From Bacteroidales bacterium (lineage in GTDB: Bacteria; Bacteroidota; Bacteroidia; Bacteroidales; UBA932): a stretch of 64,000 bases of DNA. The position numbers and the translations under genes were made by a program. Shown here in pieces: positions 37,993-54,923 of the stretch. The stretch spans positions 161,804 through 225,803 of the forward strand of contig JAFRNC010000009.1 of the NCBI GenBank assembly GCA_017430365.1, read 5' to 3'. Position 1 is the stretch's first letter. The number at the start of each line of letters is the position of its first letter. The notes below the pieces were generated by a model. That model saw nothing but the letters and a program-made list of their open reading frames with translations, was not told the DNA's origin and searched no databases.

Positions 37993-39318
37993 ATGAAAAA
38001 GAGAACAATCCTTCGAGTTTTCCCCGTGCTGCTGCTGGCCGCAGTCCTGGGCGGCTGCATTTATCTGAACAGCCTGATGCCCATCATTACTGGCTATGCG
38101 GCCAAGAACCTGGCTTCCGACGTCTTCGTCTCAGGCCGCGAACCGGCTGACATCGAGGCACTCGACCTGAATTTCTCATTCATAAAATTCTGCCGCAACC
38201 GTGTGGATTACGAAAACCATACGGTGACAAGCCGTTTCCTGTGGAGCAAGTCGACCGCGCTTTATCGCGACGGATATGGCGTGACACTTCTGCGGGGCCG
38301 CAAGGCAAAGGAGCGTCTTCTGGCGCAGTCCTTCCCCCTTCCGCCTGAAGGCAAGGGCCCAGAAGCCCTGCAGCCGGGCGATCCGGCCCTGTCGGCCCGC
38401 CTGGAACCAATCGCAAAAGCCCTGGTCGATGACCATTCCTACAACGGGACGCCCTTCGCTTTCGTGGTGCTGCACGAAGGCACGGTCGTGGCCGAGCGGT
38501 ATCGCAGCGGCATTACTGCTGACACGCGGCTCCTGAGCTGGAGCATGGGAAAAAGTTTCACCAACGCCCTGATCGGACTAATGGCGGGCGACGGCATGGT
38601 GGATGTTTTCGCCCCGATGGATATTCCCCAGTGGAAGGATGACGGACGCAGCGCCATCACGCTCAACGACCTGATGCAGATGCAGAGCGGTCTGGAATGG
38701 AACGAAAACTACGGCAACCGCTCCGATGTCAATCTCATGCTGCACAGGGAGGAGGATATGGGCCTGTTCGCTCTTTCTAAACCCTTGATGGCAAAACCGG
38801 GTACGCATTGGTACTATTCCAGCGGAAGCACCAACATCGTCATGCGATATCTCCGCGGCAAATTCTCCTCTGATACGGAGTTCCTCGCTTATATCCGTTC
38901 CCGGCTTTTCGAACCGCTCGGCATCAGGAACGCCTGTTTCGAACCCGACATGAGCGGCACGCCCGTCGGTTCGTCTTACCTGTATGTGACGGCGCGGGAT
39001 TATGCCCGTTTCGGACAGCTATATCTGGATGACGGCATGATTGGCAATGAACGCATTCTGCCGGAGAACTGGGTGGATTATACAGTGACGCCGGCATCGG
39101 ACAGTCAGGGCGGATACGGAGCGTTCTTCTGGCTGAACCGGGACAGGAAGTGCCCGGACGTTCCTGAGGACATGTATTCCTGCCAGGGCCATGACGGACA
39201 GGAGATATACATCATCCCTTCGAAGCAACTGGTAGTGGTCGTGCTTGGCTACTCCCCGAAACCCGACCGCGTGATTGATTTCAACGCCCTTCTCCGTGAC
39301 ATTATGGCCGCTTTGTGA
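37993..39318 (+). CDS. Serine hydrolase (beta-lactamase/PBP family)
   Basis: 441 aa. S-x-x-K motif LLSWSMGKSF. N-terminal membrane anchor. Confidence 0.75.
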   Translation: MKKRTILRVFPVLLLAAVLGGCIYLNSLMPIITGYAAKNLASDVFVSGREPADIEALDLNFSFIKFCRNRVDYENHTVTSRFLWSKSTALYRDGYGVTLLRGRKAKERLLAQSFPLPPEGKGPEALQPGDPALSARLEPIAKALVDDHSYNGTPFAFVVLHEGTVVAERYRSGITADTRLLSWSMGKSFTNALIGLMAGDGMVDVFAPMDIPQWKDDGRSAITLNDLMQMQSGLEWNENYGNRSDVNLMLHREEDMGLFALSKPLMAKPGTHWYYSSGSTNIVMRYLRGKFSSDTEFLAYIRSRLFEPLGIRNACFEPDMSGTPVGSSYLYVTARDYARFGQLYLDDGMIGNERILPENWVDYTVTPASDSQGGYGAFFWLNRDRKCPDVPEDMYSCQGHDGQEIYIIPSKQLVVVVLGYSPKPDRVIDFNALLRDIMAAL

Positions 39319-39415
39319 CAAGCCATCGGACACCGTGAGAATTTTTAAGGGGAACTCCCGGCAAGTTTGTATATTTATCAGATTCACCGAAACAAAACCG
39401 AAAAACCGATACCTT

Positions 39416-41437
39416 ATGAGATACTTCAGACTCCTGATCCTTTCCCTGCTGCTGGCGGTGCCGGCATTCGCCCAGATGCAGCCCGTCTCCTGGAAGGCCG
39501 AGGCCGTCCAGGTGGAAGGCAATACCTATGAAATCCGTGCGACAGGCACGATCGCCGGCAACTGGCACATCTATGATTTGACGGACTACGGCTCCAGCGG
39601 CCCCAACGGCACGATCTTCACGGTCGATGCCGGCGACAAGGTGAAACTGCTCGGTGACCCGTACATTTCTTCCGAGGTCCACAAAGGTTTCGACGATGTC
39701 TTCGGTATCGAGATCGGGACCTGCGAAAGCCCGGTGGTCATCTGCCAGAAAGTGGAGTTGCTTCAGGGCAATGAAGTGAAAGTTCCCGTTACGGTTGAAT
39801 GGCAGGCCTGCAACGATGAGAACTGCATTCCCCCGGATGATTTCACGGTCGACGTGACCCTGCCCGGCGGAGCCGGCCTGCCGGTCCTCGCGCCGGCAGA
39901 ACCCGAACCGGATCCGAATGCGACTGCGCCCGGCGAGGGCAAATCCATTTGGGGCCTTATACTCGAGGCTATCGCCTGGGGCTTTGTCGCCCTGCTTACC
40001 CCTTGCGTTTTCCCCATGATCCCTATGACCGTGAGTTTCTTCCTGAAACAGAACCAGGTCGCGGAAGGGGAGGAGAAGAAGAAGGGCCGCGGCAAATGGC
40101 TCGCCACGATTTTCGGCCTCTCTATCGTCGGTCTCTACACGATTCCTATCGCGGTCATAATCCTGATCACCTACTTCGCCGGCGGCGAAGCCGTGACGGC
40201 CGACATCTTCAACTGGCTGGCTACGCACTGGCTCCCGAATATCATCTTCTTCTTGATCTTCATGATCTTTGCGGCCTCGTTCTTCGGCGCCTTCGAGATT
40301 ACGCTGCCGAATTCATGGCTCAACAAATCGGATGAGAAATCCAACAAGGGCGGCCTGGCAGGCGTATTCTTCGTAGCCCTGACCTTAGTGCTGGTATCGT
40401 TCTCCTGCACCGGCCCTATCGTGGGTTCTGTGCTGATCAAGAGCACCCAGGGCCAGTTCTGGGAGCCGATCATCACTATGCTCGCCTTCTCGATCGCTTT
40501 CGCCCTTCCGTTCACGCTCCTGGCCTTCGCCCCGAGCCTGCTCGACAAACTCCCGAAAAGCGGCGGCTGGCTCAACAGCGTCAAGGTGGTGCTTGGCTTC
40601 GTCGAGGTTGCCCTCGGCTTCAAGTTCCTGAGCGTCGCAGACCAGACCTACCACTGGGGCCTGCTTGACCGTGAGGTTTATCTGGCAATCTGGATCGTGG
40701 TCTTCACCCTGCTGGGCCTCTACCTTCTGGGCAAGATACGTTTCGCATACGACTCTCCCGTGGAGCACCTCAGTGTATTCCGGCTGATCCTCGTTATCAT
40801 CGATTTCACCTTCGTGGTCTACATGATCCCCGGCATGTGGGGTGCGCCGCTCAAGGCCCTTTCCGGCTACCTTCCGCCGATCACGACCCAGGACTTCGTG
40901 CTCGACCCCGCCCAGCATTCCGGCGGTGGAGGAACGACATATGTGGTGGGACAGCCCATGGAAGATGAACACGGCATCCCCGCCACGCGCAAATATTCGG
41001 ATTTCCTGCACATGCCCTACGATATTCCCGCTTTCTTCGATTACGAGGAAGCCCGCGCTTATGCCGCCAAGGTCGGCAAGCCGATCCTGCTCGATTTCAC
41101 CGGTCACGGCTGTGTGAACTGCAGGGAGATGGAGTCGCGCGTCTGGAGCGACCCCCGTGTGCTGAAACTCATGAAGAACGACTATGTGGTCTGCTCGCTC
41201 TACGGCGACGACAAGAAAGTGCTCGACAAGGAAGACTGGGTGACGACTGAAGACGGCAAGGTCCTCAAGAGCCTGGGCAAGATCAATTCGTATTTCATGA
41301 TGAAACGTTATCACGTGAATGCCCAGCCCTACTATGTGATACTGGATCCGGTAACGGAAAAGAACAAGGTACCGGCCCGCAGTTATAATCTCGACGTGGA
41401 CGAATATGTGGCCTTCCTGGAAAAGGGGCTGGAATGA
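39416..41437 (+). CDS. dsbD: Thiol:disulfide interchange protein DsbD (alpha, TM beta and thioredoxin gamma domains)
   Basis: The ATG at 39416 gives the signal peptide MRYFRLLILSLLLAVPAFAQ. Alpha-domain motif VEWQACNDENCIPP. TM-domain cysteines LTPCVFPMIP and SFSCTGPIVG. C-terminal thioredoxin motif DFTGHGCVNCREME. Confidence 0.85.
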   Translation: MRYFRLLILSLLLAVPAFAQMQPVSWKAEAVQVEGNTYEIRATGTIAGNWHIYDLTDYGSSGPNGTIFTVDAGDKVKLLGDPYISSEVHKGFDDVFGIEIGTCESPVVICQKVELLQGNEVKVPVTVEWQACNDENCIPPDDFTVDVTLPGGAGLPVLAPAEPEPDPNATAPGEGKSIWGLILEAIAWGFVALLTPCVFPMIPMTVSFFLKQNQVAEGEEKKKGRGKWLATIFGLSIVGLYTIPIAVIILITYFAGGEAVTADIFNWLATHWLPNIIFFLIFMIFAASFFGAFEITLPNSWLNKSDEKSNKGGLAGVFFVALTLVLVSFSCTGPIVGSVLIKSTQGQFWEPIITMLAFSIAFALPFTLLAFAPSLLDKLPKSGGWLNSVKVVLGFVEVALGFKFLSVADQTYHWGLLDREVYLAIWIVVFTLLGLYLLGKIRFAYDSPVEHLSVFRLILVIIDFTFVVYMIPGMWGAPLKALSGYLPPITTQDFVLDPAQHSGGGGTTYVVGQPMEDEHGIPATRKYSDFLHMPYDIPAFFDYEEARAYAAKVGKPILLDFTGHGCVNCREMESRVWSDPRVLKLMKNDYVVCSLYGDDKKVLDKEDWVTTEDGKVLKSLGKINSYFMMKRYHVNAQPYYVILDPVTEKNKVPARSYNLDVDEYVAFLEKGLE

Positions 41438-41461
41438 TTTTTGTTTGAGAAAGAACCCGTT

Positions 41462-41941
41462 ATGAAGAAACTTATCCTCTGCTGCCTGCTGCTGGCCGGA
41501 CTGTCATCCGCAGGCTTCGCCCAGAATATCGAAGTGGGCGCCCAGGCTCCCGATTTCTCCGCCATGAAGATTGACGGCAAAACGTTCACTCTATCCTCGC
41601 TCCAGGGCAAATATGTCGTTCTCGACTTCTGGGGCAGCTGGTGCAAGTGGTGCATCAAGGGTTTCCCCGACATGAAAGAGGCATACGCAAAGCATAAGGG
41701 CAAGGTGGAATTCGTGGGCATCGCATGCCGCGATACCGAAGAGAAGTGGAAGGCCGCCACTGCGAAATATGAGCTTCCCTGGATCAGCGTCCTGAATCCT
41801 GCCGCGAACGATCTTGTCAAAGTGTATGAAGTGAAGGGTTTCCCGACCAAGATAGTCCTCGACCCGCAGGGCAGGATCGCCAAGGTCATACTCGGTGAAG
41901 ATCCCGAGTTCTATACTTATCTTGACTCAGTTCTAAAATAG
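41462..41941 (+). CDS. TlpA/ResA-like thioredoxin-fold protein
   Basis: MKKLILCCLLLAGLSSAGFAQ signal peptide. CxxC motif FWGSWCKWC. The gene starts 24 nt after dsbD. Confidence 0.8.
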   Translation: MKKLILCCLLLAGLSSAGFAQNIEVGAQAPDFSAMKIDGKTFTLSSLQGKYVVLDFWGSWCKWCIKGFPDMKEAYAKHKGKVEFVGIACRDTEEKWKAATAKYELPWISVLNPAANDLVKVYEVKGFPTKIVLDPQGRIAKVILGEDPEFYTYLDSVLK

Positions 41942-41964: not shown

Positions 41965-42000
41965 GCCGGGGCCATCCGTGAAGGGTGGCTTCGTCTTTTT
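41965..42000 (+). terminator. Probable intrinsic terminator
   Basis: GCCGGGGCCATCC-GTGAA-GGGTGGCTTCG followed by TCTTTTT. Confidence 0.5.
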
Positions 42001-42070
42001 GGAGGACTGACACGGCATGTTTAGCATGTTTTTTGCTGTAATATTACTATAGACTTAGACAATTTGCATT

Positions 42071-42580
42071 ATGAAAAAGTTTTTCAGTACCATCCTTATT
42101 GGCATTTGCGCAGCATTTGCATTATGTTCCTGCGAAACGATGGATCCCGAAAATGATTTTGGCGGGACTCCTTACGGTTTCTGGGTTGTTGACAAACTTG
42201 TAGTCGAAGCTTCTGTAACCATCAACGGTAATACGACCTCCACCACGAACACGACAGACTTTTCTTCCGAATACTGCCGCCTGAATCTTGATACCTCGCA
42301 CCTGGCTACGCTTTGGTTCAATTTCGAATTCCCGGATGTCGAGAGTTTTACCTATGATGAATCGAAAGAGATGATTTATTTCAAAAAGGGACTCGACAAA
42401 GGCGACAACGGTAAGGCCATCGTCCTCCTCGGTGCCTATGAAGTCATCATGAAAGGCGACACCATGATGCTCCGCCAGCCTGAGGCCGCCGTCGGCGTTC
42501 TCGGATACGGTGCCAGCGAACGGGCAACCTATTATTTCCATCGCGCACCCAAGACCGAAAAACCCAGGGAGACCAACTAA
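42071..42580 (+). CDS. Small lipoprotein, unknown function
   Basis: 169 aa. Lipobox AFALCSC followed by the acidic stretch ETMDPENDF. Confidence 0.6.
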   Translation: MKKFFSTILIGICAAFALCSCETMDPENDFGGTPYGFWVVDKLVVEASVTINGNTTSTTNTTDFSSEYCRLNLDTSHLATLWFNFEFPDVESFTYDESKEMIYFKKGLDKGDNGKAIVLLGAYEVIMKGDTMMLRQPEAAVGVLGYGASERATYYFHRAPKTEKPRETN

Positions 42581-42607
42581 TCGATTGTTTCGGTAAGCGT
42601 CAATGAG

Positions 42608-42643
42608 CCGGGACCATCCATAACGGGTGGCCCCGACTTTTTT
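42608..42643 (+). terminator. Probable intrinsic terminator, sequence-related to 41965..42000
   Basis: CCGGGACCATCC-ATAAC-GGGTGGCCCCG followed by ACTTTTTT. Confidence 0.5.
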
Positions 42644-42709
42644 GAGGGGAGGCTTCGGAAAATCTGTAGTATTGGGTAGAAAGTAATTTTTTGCCTAAAT
42701 CTTTAATTT

Positions 42710-43039
42710 ATGACAGTCAAACACTTCATCAAGATGATGTCCCTGGCCCTGGTCATTATGCTCGGATCCGCGCAGCTGGCCTCGGCGCAGAACATCACGC
42801 TGAACTTTGACAGGACGCCGCTCAAGACCGTCCTGAACGAGATCCAGAAGCAGGTGGACTACACGTTTGTCTACAACGACCAGCAGGTCGGTGCCGACAA
42901 ACCGGTCACCATCCACGTCCAGAATGCCGGCCTGACCGCCGTTCTCGACCAGATGCTCAAACCTTTGAACATCAACTACAAGATTCTCGACAAACAGATC
43001 GCCCTCTCACCGGCCGCAGCAACTTCGACGTCCAGATGA
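42710..43039 (+). CDS. Signal peptide plus STN (secretin/TonB N-terminal signalling) domain, encoded as a separate ORF; probably the detached N-terminus of the following SusC-like gene
   Basis: 109 aa. Signal peptide MMSLALVIMLGSAQLASAQ. STN-like stretch ITLNFDRTPLKTVLNEIQKQVDYTFVYNDQ...LNINYKILDKQIAL. The stop TGA overlaps the next ATG (ATGA at 43036-43039). Confidence 0.7.
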   Translation: MTVKHFIKMMSLALVIMLGSAQLASAQNITLNFDRTPLKTVLNEIQKQVDYTFVYNDQQVGADKPVTIHVQNAGLTAVLDQMLKPLNINYKILDKQIALSPAAATSTSR

Positions 43040-46000
43040 CCTACAGCCGCATGTTCATCGAAGGTGCGGTGGTTACCGGTTATCAGGAGATTCAGCAGAA
43101 GAAAGTGACGGGTGCCATCGCCACGGTCAATTCCAAGACCATCGAGGAGCGTTACACCCCGAGCCTGATGCAGAACCTCGAGGGCCGCGTGGCCGGTCTT
43201 TCGACCTATGGCGGCAAGCTTACAATCCGCGGTGTCAGTTCCATGTACGCCGAGGCCAATCCGCTCCTCGTGGTGGACGGCCTGCCGATGGAAGGCTCCA
43301 TCGACGACCTGAACCCCTACGACATCGAGAGCATCAACGTGCTGAAAGACGCGGCCGCCGCGGCAATCTACGGCGCCCGTGCTTCCAACGGTATCATCGT
43401 CATCACGACCAAGAGCGCCCGCGAGAAAGGCAAGATCGACGTGGACTTCTCCACCAACGTCACGGTCTTCTCCAAGCCCGACATGGACTATGCGCACAAC
43501 TTCTATATGAATGCCGAGCAGCAGGTCGCCCTGGAGAAGAACTACTACGACTACTATTACTTCCACAACGAAGGCGAGGTTACGAATCCGGGCCAGTCGA
43601 TGGAACAGAATCTGTTGTCCGGTTCGGGTTATATTTCCCCAATCGACTATGCCTACTACCGTATGTTCATCGGCGAAGGCACTCAGGCTGAGATCGACCA
43701 GCTCTGCAACCAGCTCTCAAAGAACAATTTCGCGCAACAGTATGCCGACGCGGTTTTTCGCCGTCAGCTGCTGCAGCAGTACAACCTGGCCCTGCGCAGC
43801 CGTTCCGACCGATTCCAGAGCAACTTCGTCGTGAACTGGCGCAACGACAACGCCGGCATCATCAATACATTCGAACGGCAGATGCAGATCAGCTACAAAG
43901 GTTCCTACGATGTCACCAAGTGGCTGACCGCCACCGTGGCCGTCAACGGAATTTACGGCAATCAGCGGGCTAAGGGCTTTACCTACAACGGCTTCGAAAG
44001 CCCCTGGATGACGCCTGCCTATGAAAGTCTTTACAATGCAGATGGTTCCACCAAACTGCTCTATACCTGGTACAACGGCAACCAGTACAGAGACAATACC
44101 GAAGGTGGCTATTTCAAGGAAACCGGCATCAACCTGGTGGACGAGTACTATAACAATGTGATGAACACCAAGCGCCAGTACATGCGTTACCACGGCGACC
44201 TGCTTTTCAAGATTGTAAAGGGCCTGACGGCCAATGCGCAGTTCGTCTATGAGACCGACCACCGCACAGCCGACTGGTACGCCACTCAGGACAGCCAGGC
44301 TGCCAAGACGATCTACAATGCCTATACCGAGGTCGATCCTTACGGCAACGTGACGCATCTTACTCCTGCTTCCGGCGGTTTCCGTGCTGCCCAGAATGTG
44401 GACGGCCGCTACTGGACCGCCCGCGGCCAGCTCAACTATGCAGGCACCTTCGGCAAGCACGAAATCGTGGCCCTGGCCGGTCTGGAATTCCGCGAGACTC
44501 TCTATTCCGGCACCAGCGCCCTGATGCTGGGCTATGACGACCAGTTGCAGAACGCTTCGACGGCGACCATCGACTTCTCGACCATCAGCCAGATGCGCTA
44601 CAGCAGCAACTATATGGCGCTCGGCGGCGGCTTCCCGGCTGTTCAGTTCGCCTACGACCCGTATATCCGCAGCAATATGGACCCTGTGGTCGAGCAGCAT
44701 CACCGCTACGCTTCCGGTTACGCAAACTTTACCTACACCTATGACGAGAAGTACAACGTCTTCGGCTCCTTCCGCAAGGACTACGCTGATGTGTACGGCC
44801 TGAACGTGAAGCTTCGCGGCCGTCCGCTCTGGAGTGCCGGTGTGGCCTGGAACATCAACAACGAAGAATTCCTCAAGCCGGTCAGCTGGATCAATGCACT
44901 CAAGCTCCGTCTGAGCTACGGTGTCACCGGTAACATTTACCAGGGCGCCACCAGCTATATGACTGCCACCAGCACAGGCCTGAACTACTATACCAACGAG
45001 CCGTTCGGTACCATCCAGAGCCCGGCCAACCCGAACCTCAAGTGGGAGCGGACGCTGACGACCAATGTCGGTCTCGACTTCTCGTTCGTTGAAAACCGTT
45101 TCCGCGGCTCCCTCGACTACTACCGCAAGGTCGGCAAGGACCTCTTCTCCTACAAGACGCTCGACCCGACCACCGGTTTCACCTCGATGTTCATGAACGT
45201 GGCCGATATGGTCAACAACGGTGTGGAACTCACTTTCACTGGCGACTGGATCCGTGAACGCCGCCGCAGCGATTTCGGTTGGAGCAGCACCCTGACCTTC
45301 GCCGTCAACAAGAACAAGATCACCAATGTGGAGAACGCTTCCACCAAGGCCTATGAATTGATCTCCAATCCGTATGTCGTCGGCTATCCGACAAGTGCCC
45401 TCTGGAGCTGGCAGTTCGCCGGCATCAGTGAGGCTGATGGAGAAAAAGGACAGACGCTCTGGTATTCCGATAACGACCGCAAGACGCACAGTGCCCAAAG
45501 CGGAAGTGTCGACATCATGAAATATTCCGGCCAGGCTGAGCCTGTAGTTATAGCCGGCCTGGATAACCGCTTCACCTGGAACGGTCTTAGCCTGAGTGTC
45601 CTGATGGCTTACTACGGCGGTCACGTGATGCGTGCCCTGGCGGAAGATGAGACCTTCGGCGTCGGTAGCGGACTGGCTGTCCCCAGTTATTTCCTCAATG
45701 CCTGGACGCCGGAGAACAAGACCAATACCCCGGGTATCGGCCGCTATTCCTCCAATGCACTCGGCCGAGAACCCAGTACGAGCGACATCTCGGTCCGCAA
45801 CGCAGCCTTCCTGAAAATCCGCAACATCGTGCTGGGTTATGAACTGCCCGAAAACTGGGTCCGCAAGATCGGTGCTTCCCGCGCGAACCTGCAGTTCCAG
45901 ATCGATAATCTGCCGGCCCTCTGGACGGCCTTCAACCCGGGTCGCGACATCCCGTATTATGAAAAGGGCGTCCGTTTCGATCCCGAGACCCTCGGCATCC

Positions 46001-46044
46001 CGCAGCGCAGTTCCTATATCTTCGGTCTCCACATCAACTTCTAA
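43036..46044 (+). CDS. SusC-like TonB-dependent transporter (plug plus barrel), with no signal peptide of its own
   Basis: 1002 aa. Plug motifs VVTGYQEIQQKKVTGAIATV, LEGRVAGL and IESINVLKDAAAAAIYGARASNGIIVITTK. The C-terminus is IFGLHINF. It is followed by a SusD-like gene. Confidence 0.85.
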   Translation: MTYSRMFIEGAVVTGYQEIQQKKVTGAIATVNSKTIEERYTPSLMQNLEGRVAGLSTYGGKLTIRGVSSMYAEANPLLVVDGLPMEGSIDDLNPYDIESINVLKDAAAAAIYGARASNGIIVITTKSAREKGKIDVDFSTNVTVFSKPDMDYAHNFYMNAEQQVALEKNYYDYYYFHNEGEVTNPGQSMEQNLLSGSGYISPIDYAYYRMFIGEGTQAEIDQLCNQLSKNNFAQQYADAVFRRQLLQQYNLALRSRSDRFQSNFVVNWRNDNAGIINTFERQMQISYKGSYDVTKWLTATVAVNGIYGNQRAKGFTYNGFESPWMTPAYESLYNADGSTKLLYTWYNGNQYRDNTEGGYFKETGINLVDEYYNNVMNTKRQYMRYHGDLLFKIVKGLTANAQFVYETDHRTADWYATQDSQAAKTIYNAYTEVDPYGNVTHLTPASGGFRAAQNVDGRYWTARGQLNYAGTFGKHEIVALAGLEFRETLYSGTSALMLGYDDQLQNASTATIDFSTISQMRYSSNYMALGGGFPAVQFAYDPYIRSNMDPVVEQHHRYASGYANFTYTYDEKYNVFGSFRKDYADVYGLNVKLRGRPLWSAGVAWNINNEEFLKPVSWINALKLRLSYGVTGNIYQGATSYMTATSTGLNYYTNEPFGTIQSPANPNLKWERTLTTNVGLDFSFVENRFRGSLDYYRKVGKDLFSYKTLDPTTGFTSMFMNVADMVNNGVELTFTGDWIRERRRSDFGWSSTLTFAVNKNKITNVENASTKAYELISNPYVVGYPTSALWSWQFAGISEADGEKGQTLWYSDNDRKTHSAQSGSVDIMKYSGQAEPVVIAGLDNRFTWNGLSLSVLMAYYGGHVMRALAEDETFGVGSGLAVPSYFLNAWTPENKTNTPGIGRYSSNALGREPSTSDISVRNAAFLKIRNIVLGYELPENWVRKIGASRANLQFQIDNLPALWTAFNPGRDIPYYEKGVRFDPETLGIPQRSSYIFGLHINF

Positions 46045-46056: not shown

Positions 46057-47487
46057 ATGAAAAAGATATTTGTTATCCTGACTACCTGCCTGCTGCTGGC
46101 CTCCTGCGCCGAGTTCACCGAACTGCAGCCCAAAGGCATGAACCTGCTTTCCACCGTCGATGAGCTGGAACTCCTGCTCAACGCCGAGTTTGAAGGCCCC
46201 ACTTCGGATATGAAACGGATGTGCGGCGATATGATCAGCTATGCCAACATTCCCAACGAACTGGCTTCGCCGACACCGTCGCGCTATACCATAATGCTGA
46301 CCTGGGACGAGTCGAAAATCGAGACTTTCAATGATTTGACGGCCGGCGACGGCGATTATACTTCCATGTACGGTTTCATCGGCAGGGTATGCAACCCGAT
46401 CCTCAGCCGTATCGGTGACGCAACGGGCGACGAGTCCAGAAAGAACCAGCTGAAGGCCGAAGCCTATACCATCCGCGCCTGGGCCCAGTATATCCTGGTC
46501 AACAAGTTTGCGGCAGCTTACAATCCTTCTACCGCAGCCAATACGCCGGGTATCCCCATCCTGCTGGAAGACTGGGACATCTCCGAGCCTACCGAAGTCT
46601 GGACAGTCGCCGAGGTGTATGACCAGATCATCGCCGACTGCGACGCCGCAATCGCCCTTAACGCACTTCCGCTGAACAATGTCAACCGGATGCGCATGAG
46701 CAAGGCCTGCCCGTACGCCGTCAAGGCGCTGGCGCTGATGGCCATGCAGAAATTCGACGAGGCGGAGTCAGTCGCCAAGCAGGCGCTCGACATCAACGGT
46801 ACCGTTTCGGATTATCTGGATGCCGCGCATACCACCATCACTACGGGCTATATAATCGGCGGTCAGTATCCTTCCCTGTATCTGGCCAAACTCGAACAGG
46901 AAGAAGACTACTTCCATACCTACGATATCATTTTCTACGAGGCCGTCAGCCAGGAAGGTGTCGCGCGCTTCGAGCCCGGCTATGCCACCTATTCCCGCAT
47001 GTCCAGCATGGATATGATGTACGACTATATGATGGGCGGCGAAATGATGACCGGCGTTCCCTGTTTCATGACCTTCGACCTGAACTCCAGCTGGAACACC
47101 TACGGCCTGAAGACGCCGCATATGTACCTGACCGTCGCCGAGTGCGAAATCCGCAAGGGGAACATCGACGAAGCCATGAAGTATCTTGACTTCATCCGCG
47201 TGAAACGCGTCGAGCCCGCCATGTATGCCCCGCTGCAGGGTAACGTGTCCACGAAGGCTGACGCGATCGCCCACCTGAAGCAGGTGTCGCACGGCGAATT
47301 CGTGTATACCCCGTACAACTTCATCATCCGCAAGCGCTGGAATCAGCTCGACGATATGAAGGAGACCTTCACCCGCGAACTGGCCGGCAAGACCTATACG
47401 CTGACACCCGATTCGAAGATGTGGATCTTCCCGTTCCCCAAGAACGCGATGAGCAACAACGCCAACATCGTTCCGAACAACCTTTAA
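46057..47487 (+). CDS. SusD/RagB-family lipoprotein
   Basis: 476 aa. Lipobox LLLASC. The gene sits 12 nt after the SusC-like gene. Confidence 0.8.
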   Translation: MKKIFVILTTCLLLASCAEFTELQPKGMNLLSTVDELELLLNAEFEGPTSDMKRMCGDMISYANIPNELASPTPSRYTIMLTWDESKIETFNDLTAGDGDYTSMYGFIGRVCNPILSRIGDATGDESRKNQLKAEAYTIRAWAQYILVNKFAAAYNPSTAANTPGIPILLEDWDISEPTEVWTVAEVYDQIIADCDAAIALNALPLNNVNRMRMSKACPYAVKALALMAMQKFDEAESVAKQALDINGTVSDYLDAAHTTITTGYIIGGQYPSLYLAKLEQEEDYFHTYDIIFYEAVSQEGVARFEPGYATYSRMSSMDMMYDYMMGGEMMTGVPCFMTFDLNSSWNTYGLKTPHMYLTVAECEIRKGNIDEAMKYLDFIRVKRVEPAMYAPLQGNVSTKADAIAHLKQVSHGEFVYTPYNFIIRKRWNQLDDMKETFTRELAGKTYTLTPDSKMWIFPFPKNAMSNNANIVPNNL

Positions 47488-47496
47488 GCTATTGAA

Positions 47497-49461
47497 ATGA
47501 AAAGGTTATTTCTTACCCTTTCCCTGCTGCTCTGCTGTTTTCTGGGCCTCAACGCCCAGAAAAAGCAGGCGGTAAGCGTGCTGTATGTGGGCGGCTCGGC
47601 CGACTTGGAAACGATGGGCCTGGAAGTGAAGCCCGACCCCGCGGTACTCGCCAGGAGCGCTGCCGAGCGCACCGCCGCTTTCGAGAAGTTCCTCAAGAAG
47701 AACTTCAAGACCGTCAAGGTAGTCGATGCCAAGGACTATCATTACTCGATGTCCGATTATTACGACGTGACCATCCTGGACGGAAAGCCTGAACCGATTG
47801 CACCCGGCATCCGCGACGTGGATGAACACGGCCGCCTGGTCCGGTATGCGCTGCCCCAGTATTTCCCGCTCGATTTCAACCGGCCTGTGATTACCATCGC
47901 CAATTTCGGTGAAGACCTTGGCAGGCGCATCGGCACCAAGAATGACTGGTACTGCCTCTGTCTCCAGGACATGGCCCTTGGCTGGAACGCTTCGCATCCC
48001 ATTTTCCAGGGCCCTGTGAAAGTGACACTCGAAACATCGATGCAGCCGACTCCTGCTCCCGCCCTTGAAATCGCGCAGATGATGGGTGAGACCCTGCCGG
48101 CCGAGACCGAGATGTTCCGGATGCAGACGGTCAATTTCGAGCAGAACCGTGACTACCGCATCGGCATGGTCTCACGTCCGGGCGGTTATCTCGATTCGCC
48201 TGAGGCCGAAGTTATAACCGGCGGCAAATGCGACAAGAGTATCGACGCCGTGGCCATCGGCCGTCACGCCAACTGGCTGACCTGGGGTTTCTCCGCCTCG
48301 CCGGCCTATATGACCGAGACAGCCAAGGCACTCTTTGTCAACGCTATCGTCTATATGAAACAGTTCGCTGGACAGCATCCCATCGCCCGGAAGTTCAATG
48401 ACGGTGTCTCCACACGTGACCATATAGCGATGGAGCGCAACCGTATGAGCCGTGCCATGTGGGAGGCCAACAACAAGGCCAACGCCGATTTCAACCGGAT
48501 GGTGGACAGCCTGAAAGCCGTCATCAAAGATCAGAAAGCGCGTGGGGAAGCTGTTGACCCCAATATGGCCATCTATGAGAATTTCCCTGCTCAGAAATTG
48601 TTGACTTATAGGGAATTCCTTATGCAGATGGATCGTGGCAAGGGCCTCTATGCCGTTTTCGGCACTGACGAGAAGGCCTATAAGGACTACTATGACAAGA
48701 ATTACGGCTGGTTCTGGTGTCCCAACGGCTCCTATGAGCTTGCCATCGACGACGAGGTCCGCTATCTGGGCATTCCGAACAATGACATCCGCATCCTCGA
48801 CAAGTGCATCTCGATGCTCGAGAAGAACGATCCGGAGAAGGACATTGCCGAAACAATTCTGAAACGCTACACGCTCTGCCGTTTCGAAACCGCGAAAGAG
48901 TGGCGCGACTGGTACAACCGCTATCACGACAAACTCTTTTTCACGGAGAGCGGCGGCTACCTCTGGCTGGTCAATACCTTTGAAAATGTACCTGGCAACG
49001 ACTACCGTGTGCGTCTGGCCGAGGAAGAAGAGGCTTATATGCTGGGCAGGGATTCCCGCCTCCGCGGGAATGACGGTCCGGCCTCGCTGACCGACGACCG
49101 CAACCCCGTATATCTCCAGGCCAAGGCTGTCAATACCGATAAGGGCAAGGATATCGTGGTCTTCCAGAAGATCCATCCCGGTTATCACACCTATGCCGTG
49201 GTACCTGCGGATGAGGTTTTCGTCGTGACGACCGTCGAGATCGAACTGCCTGCCGGTTATGAGAAAGTAGGGCCCCTCTATCTCCCCGAAGCCGGCCTGC
49301 TCGACGCTTCCGGCACGACCGTATACCGCGGCACAGGCGAATTCCGCCAGTCGATCCAGGGCAGGGGCGAGGGCGATGCCATCGTCAAAATCACCTACCA
49401 GTGCTGCAATAACAACACCTGCCTGGTGCCCGAAACCAAAACCTTTACCGTAAAACTTTAA
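47497..49461 (+). CDS. Secreted protein of unknown function with a C-terminal DsbD-alpha-like (DsbD N-terminal type) domain
   Basis: 654 aa. Signal peptide present. The C-terminal roughly 110 aa end in KITYQCCNNNTCLVPETKTFTVKL, which resembles the DsbD alpha motif (compare VEWQACNDENCIPP in the DsbD of this window). Confidence 0.6.
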   Translation: MKRLFLTLSLLLCCFLGLNAQKKQAVSVLYVGGSADLETMGLEVKPDPAVLARSAAERTAAFEKFLKKNFKTVKVVDAKDYHYSMSDYYDVTILDGKPEPIAPGIRDVDEHGRLVRYALPQYFPLDFNRPVITIANFGEDLGRRIGTKNDWYCLCLQDMALGWNASHPIFQGPVKVTLETSMQPTPAPALEIAQMMGETLPAETEMFRMQTVNFEQNRDYRIGMVSRPGGYLDSPEAEVITGGKCDKSIDAVAIGRHANWLTWGFSASPAYMTETAKALFVNAIVYMKQFAGQHPIARKFNDGVSTRDHIAMERNRMSRAMWEANNKANADFNRMVDSLKAVIKDQKARGEAVDPNMAIYENFPAQKLLTYREFLMQMDRGKGLYAVFGTDEKAYKDYYDKNYGWFWCPNGSYELAIDDEVRYLGIPNNDIRILDKCISMLEKNDPEKDIAETILKRYTLCRFETAKEWRDWYNRYHDKLFFTESGGYLWLVNTFENVPGNDYRVRLAEEEEAYMLGRDSRLRGNDGPASLTDDRNPVYLQAKAVNTDKGKDIVVFQKIHPGYHTYAVVPADEVFVVTTVEIELPAGYEKVGPLYLPEAGLLDASGTTVYRGTGEFRQSIQGRGEGDAIVKITYQCCNNNTCLVPETKTFTVKL

Positions 49462-49500
49462 CCTGTCATTTCCGGTTTGACCGGGAATATCACAACAATC

Positions 49501-50676
49501 ATGAAAAAAATACTTTCAATCATTTTCGCCGTTGCCGCCCTCTGTGCCTGCTCCAAACAGCAGCACGGCTACGTCATCAAGGGCCAGGCAGGCGATCTGG
49601 ACGGAAAGGCCGTTCTCTCGTATGCTCTCCCGGATGGCACTGCCGTCAATGATACTGTAGCGATGAACAAAGGCCGCTTCACCTTCAAGGGCTCGGTGCC
49701 CGATGTGGTGATCGGCTCCGTCGCCCTGCTTCCTGCCGGTGAGGACCCCATGCATACCAATGTCTATGTCGAAAACTGCCCGTTGACGATGAATATCAAT
49801 CTGGACAAGGTGATCGACTATGCCCGCTACGGCGGCAAGTTCCTGTCTGATGTCACCACGACAGGCGGCCCGAACAACGAGTTCGCCGATAAACTGCAGA
49901 ATGTGCGTACGGTTGTCGGACAGCGTCCCGAACTCAAAGAGGTTGCCGCCGCCATCGATGAAGTGGAGTCGATGGGTTATTCCGACATGGCCGCCTATCA
50001 GCAGAAACAGGCTGAAATCCAGAGCAAGTTTGCCGATCAGTTGGAGTCTTATTACAATGCGGTTGAGGAAGAGACCAAAAAACTCATAGCAGCCAATCCG
50101 GATGTCGAGGCCGCGGCCTATATGTTCAACCGCTATTACAACGATGCCGGCACGGAGGAATTTGAAGAAGCCTTTAATAAGTACAGCGAGAAAGTCCGCA
50201 ACAGCTTCCTGGCAGCGGAAGCCCGCGAAGAACTCGCCGCCCGCAAGGCGACGCAGCCGGGCGCCCAGGCTCCGGATTTCACGCTGAACGATCCCGAAGG
50301 CAAACCCGTGACCCTCTCGTCGCTTCGCGGCCAGTATGTCATCGTGGATTTCTGGGCATCCTGGTGCAAGCCCTGCCGCGCAGGTATGCCGGCCATGAAG
50401 GAACTGTATAAGAAATATCACCCCAAGGGTCTGGAAATCATCGGTGTGTCCGACGATACCGACCACAATGCATGGAAAAATGCCATCGAGCAGGACCAGA
50501 CTCCCTGGATCCACGTAGTCGACGAATTCCCGATCGAAAACAGACCCGCACGTGTCGGTTTGCTCTACGGCGTCCACTACATCCCTTCATATTTCCTGTT
50601 GGACAAGGAAGGCAAGGTCATAGGCAAGATGGAGCACGAGGAACTGGAAACCAAACTTGCTGAGCTTCTCGACTAA
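49501..50676 (+). CDS. TlpA-like thioredoxin-fold lipoprotein with an N-terminal DUF4369-like domain (paralogue 1)
   Basis: MKKILSIIFAVAALCAC lipobox and CxxC motif DFWASWCKPC. I prefer the ATG at 49501 over the track start at 49477. Confidence 0.8.
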   Translation: MKKILSIIFAVAALCACSKQQHGYVIKGQAGDLDGKAVLSYALPDGTAVNDTVAMNKGRFTFKGSVPDVVIGSVALLPAGEDPMHTNVYVENCPLTMNINLDKVIDYARYGGKFLSDVTTTGGPNNEFADKLQNVRTVVGQRPELKEVAAAIDEVESMGYSDMAAYQQKQAEIQSKFADQLESYYNAVEEETKKLIAANPDVEAAAYMFNRYYNDAGTEEFEEAFNKYSEKVRNSFLAAEAREELAARKATQPGAQAPDFTLNDPEGKPVTLSSLRGQYVIVDFWASWCKPCRAGMPAMKELYKKYHPKGLEIIGVSDDTDHNAWKNAIEQDQTPWIHVVDEFPIENRPARVGLLYGVHYIPSYFLLDKEGKVIGKMEHEELETKLAELLD

Positions 50677-50693
50677 TTGTCTTTATAATTGAT

Positions 50694-51851
50694 ATGAAGA
50701 AATCATTCTTTACTGCAGCGGCGGCCCTTGCGGCCGCCCTGCTCGTTTCCGCCTGCGGCGGGAACGGTTATACGATCGAAGGCGTCGTGGAAGATTCCGC
50801 CCTTGAAGGCTCGAAAGTCTATAAGATGGACGGTTTCAATATCGCCGATTTCGTGGCTGATCCGACACAATCCATGCCGATGGATTCCACCATTATACAG
50901 AATGGAAAGTATGTTTTCACCGGCAAGGTTTCTGAACCGGATTATTGCATGATCTACGTCGGTGACATGAGCGCAGGAAATCCTGCAGCACATGCAATTG
51001 CCGTCATTGAACCGGGCGCCAGGGTCAGTGTCGTCACCGATGCAGGCCACAAGACCCGTGTTTCGGGGACGCCGTCGAATGATCTGGCCCAGCGGAATGC
51101 CGATGAATACGACCGCCTGACAGACCAGTTCATGCCGCTTTATGAACGCATTGGATCCGGCGAGGCCGATGCCGAAGAATCCGCCCGCCTCGAAAAGCAG
51201 ATGGATGAAATCCGCGCGCAAATGCAGGAGGCCGATTATCGCTTCGTCAAGGAAAATATCAACAATCCTGCGGCATGGTACAAGTTGTATAACGTCGGCG
51301 TGACTGCGGCGATGGAAGACGATGCGGTAGCTAAGTTGAAAGATCTGATTGCAGGGGCGGAAGGGAGCACGAAAGAACGTGTCGACTATAAGGGTATCGT
51401 CGACCGCATCGCGGTCCTGGAACGCACGGCCGTCGGCCAGCCTTTCACTGATCTGGCCATGGAAGATCCCGACGGGAACATGATGCATCTTTCTGACTAT
51501 GCCGGCAAGGGCAAATACATCCTCGTCGATTTCTGGGCCTCCTGGTGCGGCCCCTGCAAGGCCGAGATGCCCCATGTCGTGGAATTGTACAATAAGTACA
51601 GGGACAAAGGCTTCGATATCGTGAGCGTGTCGTTCGACAGCAAGAAAGAGAACTGGCTGAAGGCCATCCCCGAATGGGGCATGACCTGGCATCATATGTC
51701 GGATCTCAAGGGCTGGGGCAGTGAAGGCTCATCAGCCTATGCGGTGAACGCAATACCCCACACGGTCCTCCTTGGCCCGGACGGCACTATTCTCGCCCGC
51801 AACCTGACTGGTGACGCCCTCGCCGCCAAACTTGCTGAACTGTTGAAATGA
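50694..51851 (+). CDS. TlpA-like thioredoxin-fold lipoprotein (paralogue 2)
   Basis: Lipobox LLVSAC and CxxC motif DFWASWCGPC. Same three-part architecture as paralogue 1. Confidence 0.8.
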   Translation: MKKSFFTAAAALAAALLVSACGGNGYTIEGVVEDSALEGSKVYKMDGFNIADFVADPTQSMPMDSTIIQNGKYVFTGKVSEPDYCMIYVGDMSAGNPAAHAIAVIEPGARVSVVTDAGHKTRVSGTPSNDLAQRNADEYDRLTDQFMPLYERIGSGEADAEESARLEKQMDEIRAQMQEADYRFVKENINNPAAWYKLYNVGVTAAMEDDAVAKLKDLIAGAEGSTKERVDYKGIVDRIAVLERTAVGQPFTDLAMEDPDGNMMHLSDYAGKGKYILVDFWASWCGPCKAEMPHVVELYNKYRDKGFDIVSVSFDSKKENWLKAIPEWGMTWHHMSDLKGWGSEGSSAYAVNAIPHTVLLGPDGTILARNLTGDALAAKLAELLK

Positions 51852-53080
51852 AGGCCATGAAACGGATGGTTTTTATCTGCGGCTTTGCAGCCGCCCTGCT
51901 TCTTCTGGCCGGATGTGCCGATGAGGCAGGTAGATTCCGGATTGATGGAACTTTCTACGGAGATGTGGAAGGCAAAACGGTTTATCTGACCCGCGCAGGC
52001 GTGGATCCGGAAAGTCGTTGGCAGCCGGAGGTGCTCGACAGTACGGTCATCAGCAATGGCAGGTTCAGTTTCAGCGGGTCCGTGGAAGAGCCGACATTGC
52101 TCATAATCAAGTATTTTCCCGATGAAAGGCGGGCGGCTGCCGATGACCGGGGCGTCATCATGCATCCGGTCGTCCCGCTCCTTATTGACGGAGGGAATAT
52201 CCAGGTGGAAGCCGCGGTCGACAGTCTGCCGAGTGATTTCCTGTTTTATGCCTATGGCAATTATGATTATCGCCATGCCAGAACTGCCGGGTCTCAGCTC
52301 AACAGTCATTATCAGGAATACCAGCAGGAATATTCACGTCTGAAGGATCTTGCTTCAGATATATCCGACCGGTTTAACCAGCGGTATTATTATGAAAAGG
52401 ATGCGACGATAGACTACATCGTAACTGAACTGGATAAACTGGATGCCGCCAAGGCGGATGAAAGGGCTTACCTGAGCGGCTTCATTACCCGGAACCGGGA
52501 CAATGCGGCCGGTTTGATGTCCCTTTCCGAGACGCTCGACCTGTTCAGCAAGGACGAAATCGAAAGCCTTGTGGAAACGCTCTCTCCGAAAATGAAAGAT
52601 ACTCCGCTGGGAAAAGCCGTGATTGAACGTGCTTCCGTCATTGCCAATACGGCTAAAGGGTCACAGTTCGCCGACGTTACGCTCATAGATCCTTCGGACG
52701 GACATCATCAGCTTTCGGAATATCTGGGTAAAGGCAATTATACCCTGTTGGAATTCTGGGCCTCGTGGTGCGGTCCCTGCCGCAGTTCGATTCCTCATCT
52801 CAAGGAAGTTTACTCTCTCTATCATCCGTCGGGTTTCGACATCGTGAGTGTTTCGATGGACGACAAACTTGACGCCTGGAAAAAGGCAGTGGACGAGGAA
52901 CGGATGCCCTGGACGCAGCTCGGCTGCGAAGACGGCTTCGGTGAAGTCGCCAGGATCTACAATTTCAACGGTATTCCATATTGCGTACTCATCGGTCCCG
53001 ACGGCGAAGTGGTGGAAACCAACTGCCGCGACGCCCGCCTCGACCGCCAGCTTGTGAACCTTTACGGTAACAAGTTTTAA
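51848..53080 (+). CDS. TlpA-like thioredoxin-fold lipoprotein (paralogue 3)
   Basis: Lipobox LLLAGC followed by ADEAG. CxxC motif EFWASWCGPC. ATGA overlap with paralogue 2. Confidence 0.8.
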   Translation: MKAMKRMVFICGFAAALLLLAGCADEAGRFRIDGTFYGDVEGKTVYLTRAGVDPESRWQPEVLDSTVISNGRFSFSGSVEEPTLLIIKYFPDERRAAADDRGVIMHPVVPLLIDGGNIQVEAAVDSLPSDFLFYAYGNYDYRHARTAGSQLNSHYQEYQQEYSRLKDLASDISDRFNQRYYYEKDATIDYIVTELDKLDAAKADERAYLSGFITRNRDNAAGLMSLSETLDLFSKDEIESLVETLSPKMKDTPLGKAVIERASVIANTAKGSQFADVTLIDPSDGHHQLSEYLGKGNYTLLEFWASWCGPCRSSIPHLKEVYSLYHPSGFDIVSVSMDDKLDAWKKAVDEERMPWTQLGCEDGFGEVARIYNFNGIPYCVLIGPDGEVVETNCRDARLDRQLVNLYGNKF

Positions 53081-53229: not shown

Positions 53230-53276
53230 CAAGAAATGCAGAGGGCGGAAGATGAGGGCGGAAGATGGGGGCGGAA

Positions 53277-54299
53277 TCAGCGAAGTTCGACTTCGGTGGG
53301 ACTCGTGATGCGGGACTTGATTCCGCAGGTGATGTCGAGGAGTGTGAGGACCTGCTGGAGCGATTCGCTGCGGAAACTGGCAGTGAAGGTGTTGTTCATC
53401 ACGCGGGCGTCGGCCACTGTGATGTCGACGCCGTACCAGCGCTCCATCTTCTTTATGACTTCGCGGATAGGCGTATTATCAAACACCAGGTAGCCGTCTT
53501 TCCACGAAGTGTTGAGACGCATGTCGGCAGCCTTTCGGGCAGGTTTCTCCAGTTTGGACGTAGCGCCGACGACCACTTCCTCCTTTTCTTTTACGATGAC
53601 CTCGGTATCGTTCTTTTCATCGAGAAGGGTTACTTTGCCGCGGACCAGGGTCAGTTTCAGCGCGGCGTCGTCGCTGTAGGTCGAGAGATTGAATTCGGTG
53701 CCGGTGACCTTTACCGTCACGCCCTTGCTCGTCCGCACGTACATCGGCCAGTCGGGATTTGTTTCGACCTTGAAGTAGCCCTCTCCTTCGAGTTCGACCA
53801 CCCGCTTGCCGTTTTCGAATCTGGCAGGCGTACGGAGAGTACTGGCGCTGTTGAGAATCACTTCGCTGCCGTCGGGCAGGGTGATCTTGCCCTTTACGCC
53901 GGGATTGACCTTATAGTTGAGGACGGATTCTCCCTGGACAAGTTCGGGAATGGCGATGAGTTTCTCGTTCTGGGCGGTCAGGCTCATCACTTGTTTGTTG
54001 AGGCGGGAATTGTCGTGCAGGACCCAGAGGAAAGCTCCGACGACAAAGACGGCGGCAGCGGCTGCGACGGCTCGCAGGAAACTGATCCTGCGCCGATGAG
54101 GCGCAATCGTTTCCAGCATCTGGGCGGTCGCGGCATGCGACGGTGCGGCGTCGGGCATGGAGTCGAAGACGAAATCCGCTTCGCGGCGCAGGAACTCTTC
54201 CTTGTTCTCGGGAGAATCCTGCACCCACGCGAGGACTTCGCGCCGCTCTGCCTCAGTGGCCGTGCCGGCGAAGTAGCTATGGAGTGTAGCCTCTTTCAT
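53277..54299 (-). CDS. FecR-family anti-sigma factor
   Basis: MKEATLHSYFAGTATEAERREVLAWV... N-terminus, TM segment AAAAAVFVVGAFLWVL, and FecR motif ITLPDGSEVILNSASTL. The track start at 54326 is an alternative. Confidence 0.85.
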   Translation of the reverse strand: MKEATLHSYFAGTATEAERREVLAWVQDSPENKEEFLRREADFVFDSMPDAAPSHAATAQMLETIAPHRRRISFLRAVAAAAAVFVVGAFLWVLHDNSRLNKQVMSLTAQNEKLIAIPELVQGESVLNYKVNPGVKGKITLPDGSEVILNSASTLRTPARFENGKRVVELEGEGYFKVETNPDWPMYVRTSKGVTVKVTGTEFNLSTYSDDAALKLTLVRGKVTLLDEKNDTEVIVKEKEEVVVGATSKLEKPARKAADMRLNTSWKDGYLVFDNTPIREVIKKMERWYGVDITVADARVMNNTFTASFRSESLQQVLTLLDITCGIKSRITSPTEVELR

Positions 54300-54344
54300 T
54301 TTACCACCAATAATACCGATATCCATATACTTCCCCTCAAAAAA

Positions 54345-54923
54345 TCATTTGAAAAGTGACAGTTTGTTGCGGAATTGCTTCAGGGCTTTCACCATGTTAT
54401 ACTCCACCTTCTTGACCGTAAGGCCGGTTGACTCCGCGATTTCCTCGTAGGTCATGTTCCCGTCGCGGTTCATCACGAAAATCCTGCGGGTGAGTTCGGG
54501 GAGTCTTTCGTATACAAGGTCGATAATCCGCTTCATGTCCATGGCATCGATTCGCGATATCACGTGTTCGCTGCTCAAACTCTCTATCGACAGGTTCACG
54601 GAATCCCTCTCCAGGGGATCTGTGAGCCTTGTCCGCAGGGAACTCAGGTGATTTAGAGCCTTGTTGCGGGCGATGGTGAAGAGGAATGAACGGATATTGC
54701 GCTGCGGATCGATGCGGTCGCGGTTGGTCCATAGCGAAGCGAAGGTCTCCTGCGCCAGGTCTTCGGATTCCGCTCCGTCGTGGACGTAGTGCCGGATGAA
54801 AAACTTGACGTTCTCATACTCCGCCTTGAACAGCACTTCGTAAGCCTCGGTGTCCGAAGCCTTGATGGCTTCTGAGAAGACCCTGAGGATTTCCCGGTCA
54901 CTGCTGTTGTAATACGGAGGCAT
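54345..54923 (-). CDS. ECF-type RNA polymerase sigma-70 factor
   Basis: 192 aa. Region 2 (EDLAQETFASLW) and region 4 (TYEEIAESTGLTVKKVEYNMVKAL). Confidence 0.85.
   Translation of the reverse strand: MPPYYNSSDREILRVFSEAIKASDTEAYEVLFKAEYENVKFFIRHYVHDGAESEDLAQETFASLWTNRDRIDPQRNIRSFLFTIARNKALNHLSSLRTRLTDPLERDSVNLSIESLSSEHVISRIDAMDMKRIIDLVYERLPELTRRIFVMNRDGNMTYEEIAESTGLTVKKVEYNMVKALKQFRNKLSLFK

Follow-up and report, generated by a model that had tools for sequence, protein, structure and literature searches.

We describe here a gene in a 64,000-nucleotide (nt) stretch of a Bacteroidales genome (contig JAFRNC010000009.1; the whole stretch is called the window below) whose 654-amino-acid (aa) product is probably a periplasmic two-module thiol-based reductase. 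As judged from its sequence, the protein would be recycled via its own DsbD-type alpha domain and would act on cargo imported by a SusC/SusD pair. The original prediction, made from the DNA letters and their translations, had proposed at this place an exported domain of ∼540 residues fused to a DsbD-alpha-like redox module and serving as a dedicated reductase fed by DsbD or TlpA proteins. The open reading frame (ORF), 47497–49461 on the plus strand, exists exactly as claimed: it starts with ATG, and its translation in the ORF list gives 654 residues ending in ...ITYQCCNNNTCLVPETKTFTVKL. It also directly follows a SusD-like gene (Pfam SusD-like_3), the stop codon of which lies 9 nt ahead of the ATG. 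The proposal of a dedicated reductase is supported by an invariant CxC motif with selenocysteine (Sec)-containing homologues, by a conserved partnership with SusC, SusD and TlpA-like proteins and by the fusion and fission of the two modules; the activity and the electron donor are what we infer from these observations.

Residues 547–652 are a true DsbD N-terminal (alpha) domain. They match Pfam DsbD_N (PF11412) with 37.5 bits against a cut-off of 25 (E 2.7e-9) over profile positions 16–117 of 119, and a family profile run against the PDB sequences aligned residues 537–642 with the N-terminal domain of E. coli DsbD (nDsbD; 1l6p, 3pfu and 1jpe) and matched nothing except nDsbD chains. In the alignment of this profile with 1l6p, C637 and C642 correspond to C103 and C109 of E. 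coli DsbD. Likewise, when the PDB was searched by Foldseek with the full-length AlphaFold model, the top 17 matches were 16 nDsbD chains from E. coli or Neisseria and one ScsB chain; the alpha domain was matched at E 3e-5 to 5e-4 with a probability of 1.0 and template modeling (TM) scores (target) of 0.57–0.64 for nDsbD, and generic immunoglobulin (Ig)-like folds scored ∼100-fold worse. A non-redox Ig-like fold, named beforehand as the outcome that would speak against this module, was not what we found, because nDsbD is itself Ig-like and the redox pair is retained. C637, C642, Q635 and P645 are each kept in 81 of 82 homologues, as is G562, and Y566 occurs in all 82. The original prediction had singled out a CC...C set of cysteines, of which C637 and C642 stand and C636 does not, being variable (C in 42 and A in 30 of the 82). 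The domain shares with nDsbD (1l6p, 1jpe, 3pfu and 1vrs; Neisseria 6dps and 6dnv; PF11412) the YQxC...CxxP active-site strand and the G-Y-x-x-Y strand, but differs from it in several respects: it is C-terminal on a soluble protein that lacks the DsbD membrane and gamma domains, it would pass its electrons to the non-thioredoxin domain fused to it, the redox pair is spaced C-x4-C rather than the C-x5-C of E. coli, and the segment corresponding to the E. coli cap loop (D68-E69-F70-Y71) is ∼9 residues longer and not alignable residue by residue. The C-x4-C spacing matches that of the window's own DsbD, whose strand VEWQACNDENCIPP, to which a likeness had been claimed, is real and aligns with the C-terminal cysteine strand of the 654-aa protein. 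No Pfam match to DsbD_TM or to a thioredoxin domain was found in the protein, which is not a full-length DsbD.

The sequence predicts a soluble, periplasmic protein. The n/h/c pattern of its signal peptide recurs in the homologues, in which the signal peptide is mostly free of Cys. A lipoprotein or surface location was considered and dropped, because most homologues have no Cys in the signal peptide and a lipobox is lacking. The full-length AlphaFold model has a predicted local distance difference test score (pLDDT) of 88.6 and is confident save for the linker near residues 523–528 (pLDDT <50); the length of this linker varies widely among homologues (alignment columns 530–600).

The N-terminal ∼540 residues had been called unrecognisable, and by sequence they are: residues 1–546 match nothing in Pfam or NCBIfam, residues 22–520 match no PDB sequence, 54 diverse N-domains found no Pfam match even at E up to 10, and the Sec forms described below, read with TGA as Sec (U), gave no Pfam or NCBIfam match to the N-domain. 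Because alpha-domain matches filled the Foldseek list of the full-length model, in which nothing below E 0.01 fell on the N-domain, a separate AlphaFold2 model of residues 22–520 was needed (me443096ef45f; pLDDT 94.2, predicted TM score (pTM) 0.91). Its top PDB matches were lin1909 (3fij), PuuD (6vtv), GMP synthase (GuaA, 7mo6), Pdx2 (2nv0) and CTP synthase (2vkt), all of them class-I amidotransferase or peptidase C26 relatives matching residues 22–300, at E 2.6e-4 to 1e-2 and a probability of 0.84–1.0, with TM scores (target) of only 0.35–0.43; flavodoxins ranked below them. In comparison with these enzymes the N-domain has large insertions, an extra helical subdomain of 220 aa and a CxC motif in place of GxCxG. 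A comparison by hhalign of the N-domain core with glutamine amidotransferase domains from related genomes gave no signal (probability 0.2), and the 54 members showed no membership of the PF00117 or PF07722 profiles at E up to 10. Because the TM scores are low and the profile-profile comparison is negative, the resemblance is one of fold only, and at that level the model of the N-domain shows an alpha/beta core of class-I glutamine-amidotransferase type, although a divergent one, to which a helical subdomain is added. This subdomain (the last ∼220 residues of the N-domain) found no structural match in the PDB by Foldseek. Thus, of the earlier hint at a ThuA- or amidotransferase-like flavodoxin fold, the amidotransferase part holds for the fold of the confident model, and the ThuA part was rejected: ThuA (PF06283) gave no hidden Markov model (HMM) match at E up to 10, and no ThuA structure was among the top 50 fold matches.

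Conservation within the N-domain is concentrated in K148-x-D150-W151-x-C153-x-C155-L156, H167, R227-P228, D233, E238, K247, D250 and R256-H257, with H167, D233, E238, K247 and R256 invariant or near-invariant around the CxC motif, H or Q at 257 and N at 259. The helical subdomain has invariants of its own (Y458, T459, L460, R462, W469, W472, F481, F482, E484, G486 and G487). The CxC motif, which the original prediction had passed over, is the actual catalytic candidate: all 82 homologues have both C153 and C155, as do nearly all of the representatives at 50% identity in which the site is covered.

The window gene is a Cys form, with TGC as the codon for C153, whereas in eight homologous genes from at least two lineages an in-frame TGA at the C153 position was verified on DNA. 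Four of these belong to one genome from the order-level sampling (G657), which has six alpha-less N-domain paralogues, 32–34% identical, next to sigma factor, FecR, SusC and SusD genes; four read DW-C-TGA-L-C-L and the other two DWLCNCL. Common to the four TGA genes is the hairpin GUAAGUA-UGGAU-UACUUAC, which has a 7-bp stem and starts 13 nt past the UGA, and the GG of its UGGAU loop sits at +22/+23 from the UGA in all four, which we take to be the position of the loop G residues in the E. coli fdhF selenocysteine insertion sequence (SECIS). One copy carries a compensatory change of G-C to A-U that preserves the stem. The hairpin scored z −1.5 to −2.1 in the TGA genes compared with −0.1 to +1.4 in the Cys-form paralogues and the window, where no comparable hairpin was found. 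G657 also encodes, on one contig, selB (368.6 bits, cut-off 242) and tRNA-Sec (60.2 bits, cut-off 47), and neither was above threshold in three Cys-form genomes including that of the window; this test covered four carrier genomes.

The other lineage emerged from a profile search of 1.84 billion representatives, which returned 959 relatives. Among the best 148 representatives, 16 begin with "MCL..." exactly one residue past the C153 position, and each of the four such genes inspected on DNA (L092–L095) has an in-frame TGA (DWxU-M-C-L), with an ORF of 127–156 aa upstream of it in which the missing signal peptide and the beginning of the domain are encoded. These four genes lie on high-GC metagenomic contigs without SusC/SusD, and their proteins keep the DsbD-alpha tail. 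The hairpins after their TGA codons have CACGG in common and are individually weak (z −0.85 to −2.2). Rfam models of bacterial SECIS elements gave no relevant match around the TGA codons, no NCBIfam model matches the Sec or the Cys forms, and no matching family is present in the parts covered of the table of 119 prokaryotic selenoprotein families in the 2026 review PMC13188914. In families of known function, Sec positions mark redox-catalytic residues (PMC13188914). Because Sec and Cys alternate at this position in homologues, C153 is very probably a redox-catalytic residue.

Further UGA codons may be involved in two ORFs of these loci. In one Sec form (P0226, L093 8001–10193), the sequence beyond the alpha domain appears to continue with a helical segment and then the start of a TlpA-like thioredoxin (...VVVLDFWGFW); the ORF ends at WGFW, where another UGA, belonging to a thioredoxin motif of UxxC type, may be concealed. 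In G657, a 425-aa FG-GAP-repeat ORF (L089 17704–18981, minus strand) is open only when one TGA is read through and may be another selenoprotein or a pseudogene.

The partnership with importer and thioredoxin-like genes is conserved. Across 80 related loci, the hosts of which span Bacteroidales, Sphingobacterium and Sinomicrobium, SusC stands in the same-strand gene run in 63 and a TlpA-like gene in 44, with one or the other in 72; the loci with neither are mostly contig ends. FecR/ECF (extracytoplasmic function)-sigma pairs flank the runs, and gene order varies, with the gene upstream of SusC in Segatella. No further family, notably no hydrolase, recurs in the 80 runs. DsbD is a direct neighbor in the window's own clade (relatives L004–L014) and is part of the locus in L082 (Sphingobacterium), L089 and L126.

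The two modules also occur apart. Separate alpha domains are encoded near alpha-less N-domain genes in six of eight loci: in L127, a 172-aa stand-alone DsbD_N gene starts 9 nt past the N-domain gene, and in G657, four DsbD-alpha-like ORFs lie within 7 kb (L090 170–6953, minus strand) downstream of an alpha-less N-domain gene. L126 has both fused and unfused paralogues. This pattern of fusion and fission argues that the N-domain and the alpha domain work together, and we regard it as the strongest genomic evidence for a predicted joint function of the two modules.

Some of these loci showed further peculiarities. The stand-alone alpha ORFs of L090 are interleaved with DUF4369 proteins, an unusual expansion, and L126 encodes (11670–13952) a 760-aa protein with DUF4369 and two tandem TlpA-like thioredoxin domains; the DsbD at the end of the L126 operon was missed by the precomputed Pfam table.

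Taking these observations together, we can propose a path and partners for the electrons, a reaction at C153 and a kind of substrate. Electrons from cytoplasmic thioredoxin would pass through the membrane domain of DsbD to a thioredoxin-fold donor (DsbD-gamma and/or TlpA-like proteins), which would recharge C637/C642 of the tethered alpha domain; the alpha domain, on its flexible linker, would in turn re-reduce C153/C155. C153 (Sec in homologues) would attack the oxidised substrate and C155 would resolve the adduct, giving an intramolecular disulfide (a selenylsulfide in Sec forms). The substrate would be the cargo of the presumably co-transcribed and ECF-sigma/FecR-regulated SusC/SusD pair; we can only guess at a disulfide-bonded or other oxidised sulfur-containing nutrient, for example a peptide.

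Several points weigh against this reductase. To our knowledge, DsbD-alpha exchanges electrons only with thioredoxin-fold partners, and direct reduction by it of a CxC motif outside the thioredoxin fold would be without precedent. The dithiol/disulfide geometry of a CxC placed on a beta-strand is unusual as well. The pTM of the full-length model is 0.74, lower than that of the N-domain alone, and the geometry between the domains is therefore not predicted. Sec alone is no proof of disulfide chemistry, because it also takes the place of the nucleophilic Cys in predicted amidotransferase-like selenoproteins (PMC13188914). Beyond the transporter, the operon gives no clue to the substrate. Moreover, the transporter itself is damaged in the window. 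The relative L009, in which the two-module protein shares 91% identity with that of the window, has an intact SusC of 1190 aa made up of STN, CarboxypepD_reg, plug and barrel. By comparison, the window gene has lost 238 nt, a length not divisible by 3; CarboxypepD_reg is gone, and what is left is a 109-aa STN ORF and, lacking a signal peptide, a plug/barrel ORF of 1002 aa. The deletion may be a real inactivation of the importer or an assembly error, and because it breaks the frame, the system may not be fully functional in the window genome.

The alternative that survives best, although we hold it to be unlikely, is that the N-domain is a hydrolase or transferase (e.g. one that hydrolyses gamma-glutamyl or other amide bonds) of amidotransferase or peptidase-C26 type with C153 as its acyl-enzyme nucleophile, and that the alpha domain, DsbD and the TlpA-like proteins only keep C153 reduced, as DsbG and DsbC protect the cysteine of L,D-transpeptidases in E. 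coli. In favor of such an enzyme, the structure search gave its top matches to proteins of the class-I amidotransferase fold, with PuuD and lin1909 of C26 type among them; R256-H257 also follows a beta-strand where amidotransferases have their HPE motif, and an amidotransferase-like selenoprotein with a Sec nucleophile is among those predicted in PMC13188914. However, no sequence relationship to PF00117-type domains was found by hhalign or Pfam, and a Cys-His-Glu triad cannot be made out with confidence: the motif is W-x-C-x-C rather than GxCxG, a good many of the representatives covering the site, though fewer than half, have Q in place of the candidate His H257, which a triad His would not tolerate, and the residue two positions on is N rather than E. 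C153 was first placed at the nucleophile elbow ("ICLG" against "YCLC"), but in the model I134-A135 may fit at least as well, and going by the order of secondary structures the elbow may be I134-A135-N136, without a conserved nucleophile. The strict Cys at +2 and the recurrent fusion to, or co-encoding with, electron carriers fit a dithiol cycle better than mere protection.

Less probable still is a site for a metal or metalloid (Cu, Zn, Hg, As or Se species) formed by the CxC motif with H167, H257, D233 and E238, in a metallochaperone, detoxifier or metalloenzyme whose ligand thiols the alpha domain and TlpA-like proteins would keep reduced, as TlpA does for ScoI and CoxB. Many of the conserved Cys, His, Asp and Glu residues lie together in loops at strand ends, FecR/ECF-sigma-controlled TonB-dependent transporters classically import metal chelates, and several predicted bacterial selenoproteins with UxC, CU or UxxU motifs handle metals (PMC13188914). 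Against this, neither histidine is strict, H257 being replaced by Q and H167 now and then by N or S, no gene for metal transport, efflux or a metal chaperone recurs in the 80 loci, no known metal-binding family was matched in Pfam or NCBIfam, and SusC/SusD transporters, to which the one here belongs, are associated with organic nutrients. It seems to us very improbable that the N-domain is without catalytic activity and binds cargo or acts as a scaffold for the SusC/SusD pair, with the CxC as a structural or regulatory redox switch; accessory non-enzymatic binding proteins are common in SusC/SusD loci and the sequence reveals no substrate chemistry, but about fifteen invariant polar residues surround the motif, and the link of the N-domain to an electron-carrier domain recurs in several phyla, also where SusC/SusD are not nearby (L092–L095). 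Sec in place of a structural Cys would also be most unusual, since in families of known function it stands at catalytic redox positions (PMC13188914).

A two-module reductase with a tethered relay domain has partial counterparts among known systems. ScsB (Proteus mirabilis 6c29), one of the structural matches, has a DsbD-family alpha-like domain; ScsB proteins form a dedicated periplasmic reducing pathway with a TlpA-like protein, as in the Caulobacter ScsB-TlpA-PprX system. Unlike ScsB, which retains a membrane domain and has a peroxiredoxin or a copper-stress protein as terminal acceptor, the alpha domain described here is soluble, is joined to a new domain and is encoded in a nutrient-import operon. 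In Neisseria PilB, periplasmic MsrA/MsrB are tethered to an N-terminal, DsbD-dependent thioredoxin-like relay domain, which is the same logic as here; the relay of PilB, however, has a thioredoxin fold and its catalytic domains are methionine-sulfoxide reductases, with no sequence or fold relation to our N-domain. The catalogued Sec/Cys thiol-oxidoreductases (Table 1 of PMC13188914) likewise have Sec at a conserved Cys near a second Cys (UxxC/CxxU), whereas the U-x-C here is on a non-thioredoxin fold and the window protein itself is a Cys form.

The features of the gene and of the operon around it are collected in the following table.

Features of the two-module gene and of its operon in the window
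Feature	Coordinates	Strand	Basis
Whole gene, exported two-module redox protein	47497..49461	+	ORF translation; >600 full-length homologue clusters
Type-I signal peptide, aa 1–20 (MKRLFLTLSLLLCCFLGLNA then Q)	47497..47556	+	Read from sequence; putative cleavage site
N-domain alpha/beta core, aa 22–300, class-I glutamine-amidotransferase-like fold	47560..48396	+	AlphaFold2 model, Foldseek
C153-L-C155, candidate catalytic redox motif (NDWYCLCL)	47953..47961	+	Cys invariance, Sec alignment
N-domain helical subdomain, aa 301–522, with conserved FFTESGG beta-hairpin	48397..49062	+	Secondary structure of the model
Variable low-confidence linker, aa 523–546	49063..49134	+	pLDDT, length variation among homologues
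Ig-like domain of DsbD-alpha (nDsbD) type, aa 547–652	49135..49452	+	Pfam PF11412, PDB sequence, Foldseek
Alpha-domain redox pair, C637-NNNT-C642	49405..49422	+	HMM alignment to 1l6p, conservation
Full DsbD (alpha, TM, thioredoxin-like gamma), presumed electron source	39275..41437	+	Pfam DsbD_TM, Thioredoxin_7, weak DsbD_N
Small soluble TlpA-like thioredoxin, WCKWC, signal peptide	41441..41941	+	Pfam AhpC-TSA, Thioredoxin_8, Redoxin
SusC-like TonB-dependent transporter, split: STN 42710–43039, plug/barrel 43036–46044	42710..46044	+	Pfam STN, Plug, TonB_dep_Rec_b-barrel
SusD-like lipoprotein	46057..47487	+	Pfam SusD-like_3
Three tandem DUF4369 + TlpA-like thioredoxin lipoproteins (CKPC, CGPC, CGPC)	49477..53080	+	Pfam, lipoboxes, CxxC
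FecR-type anti-sigma	53277..54326	-	Pfam FecR, FecR_C
ECF sigma factor	54345..54923	-	Pfam Sigma70_r2, Sigma70_r4_2

The true start of DsbD is probably downstream of the TTG that is listed, and the first DUF4369/TlpA-like gene downstream lies within 16 nt of the 654-aa gene. The operon has the adjacent SusC/SusD pair by which a polysaccharide utilization locus (PUL) is recognised and lacks the carbohydrate-active enzymes (CAZymes): no glycoside hydrolase or lyase domain was found in it or in six annotated related loci. Two further ORFs were noted in this part of the window. The small TlpA-like gene is separated from SusC by a gap of 769 nt, in which lies a 169-aa lipoprotein ORF without a Pfam match (42071–42580); because the same gap is ∼130–155 nt long and free of that ORF in the close relatives L004, L006, L007 and L009, positions 41942–42709 of the window look like an insertion. 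A homologue of this lipoprotein is encoded in L010, downstream of the TlpA genes. The 364-aa plus-strand ORF 53265–54359 has no Pfam match and is a shadow of the minus-strand FecR gene.

Full-length relatives of the protein form >600 clusters in a collection of 5.8 billion proteins and, where they are named at all, are called "hypothetical" or "protein-disulfide reductase DsbD domain-containing protein". With one genome counted per species, at least 214 species carry the family, among them rumen and gut Bacteroidales, Bacteroides gallinaceum, Phocaeicola intestinalis, Segatella copri, Prevotella, Muribaculaceae, Odoribacter, Alistipes, Sphingobacterium and Sinomicrobium. The family is patchy and not universal, since even sampling gave only one carrier among 401 genomes of the phylum and four among 301 of the order. 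The window genome has a single copy of the gene, which is under strong purifying selection (ratio of nonsynonymous to synonymous substitution rates 0.07–0.10 against relatives of ∼85–91% identity).

DsbD-dependent reducing pathways of the periplasm serve cytochrome c maturation, disulfide isomerisation, methionine-sulfoxide repair and peroxide removal, and we know of none that is coupled to a TonB-dependent SusC/SusD importer; a literature search found no published description of this protein or type of locus. The system is predicted to be a variant of the DsbD-dependent periplasmic reductase theme, with an undescribed catalytic domain and Sec-containing relatives. More tentatively, and with somewhat greater doubt than confidence, the N-domain may found a new (seleno)cysteine enzyme family, with U/C-x-C on an amidotransferase-like fold and recycled by DsbD-alpha; together with SusC/SusD, the TlpA-like lipoproteins and DsbD it would make up a new class of "redox utilisation locus", with which Bacteroidota would reduce, rather than hydrolyse, imported cargo in their periplasm. 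The Sec-containing relatives, which gene callers split, are a candidate new selenoprotein family. If the proposed reductase is real, DsbD-alpha has a non-thioredoxin acceptor, hitherto unreported, and the family is a test case for such a partnership. Because a redox protein sits in a SusC/SusD import operon, our results suggest that some Bacteroidota importers chemically reduce their cargo. Overall, as the family occurs in so many species, including abundant gut and rumen taxa, its function would explain a whole class of CAZyme-free "PULs".

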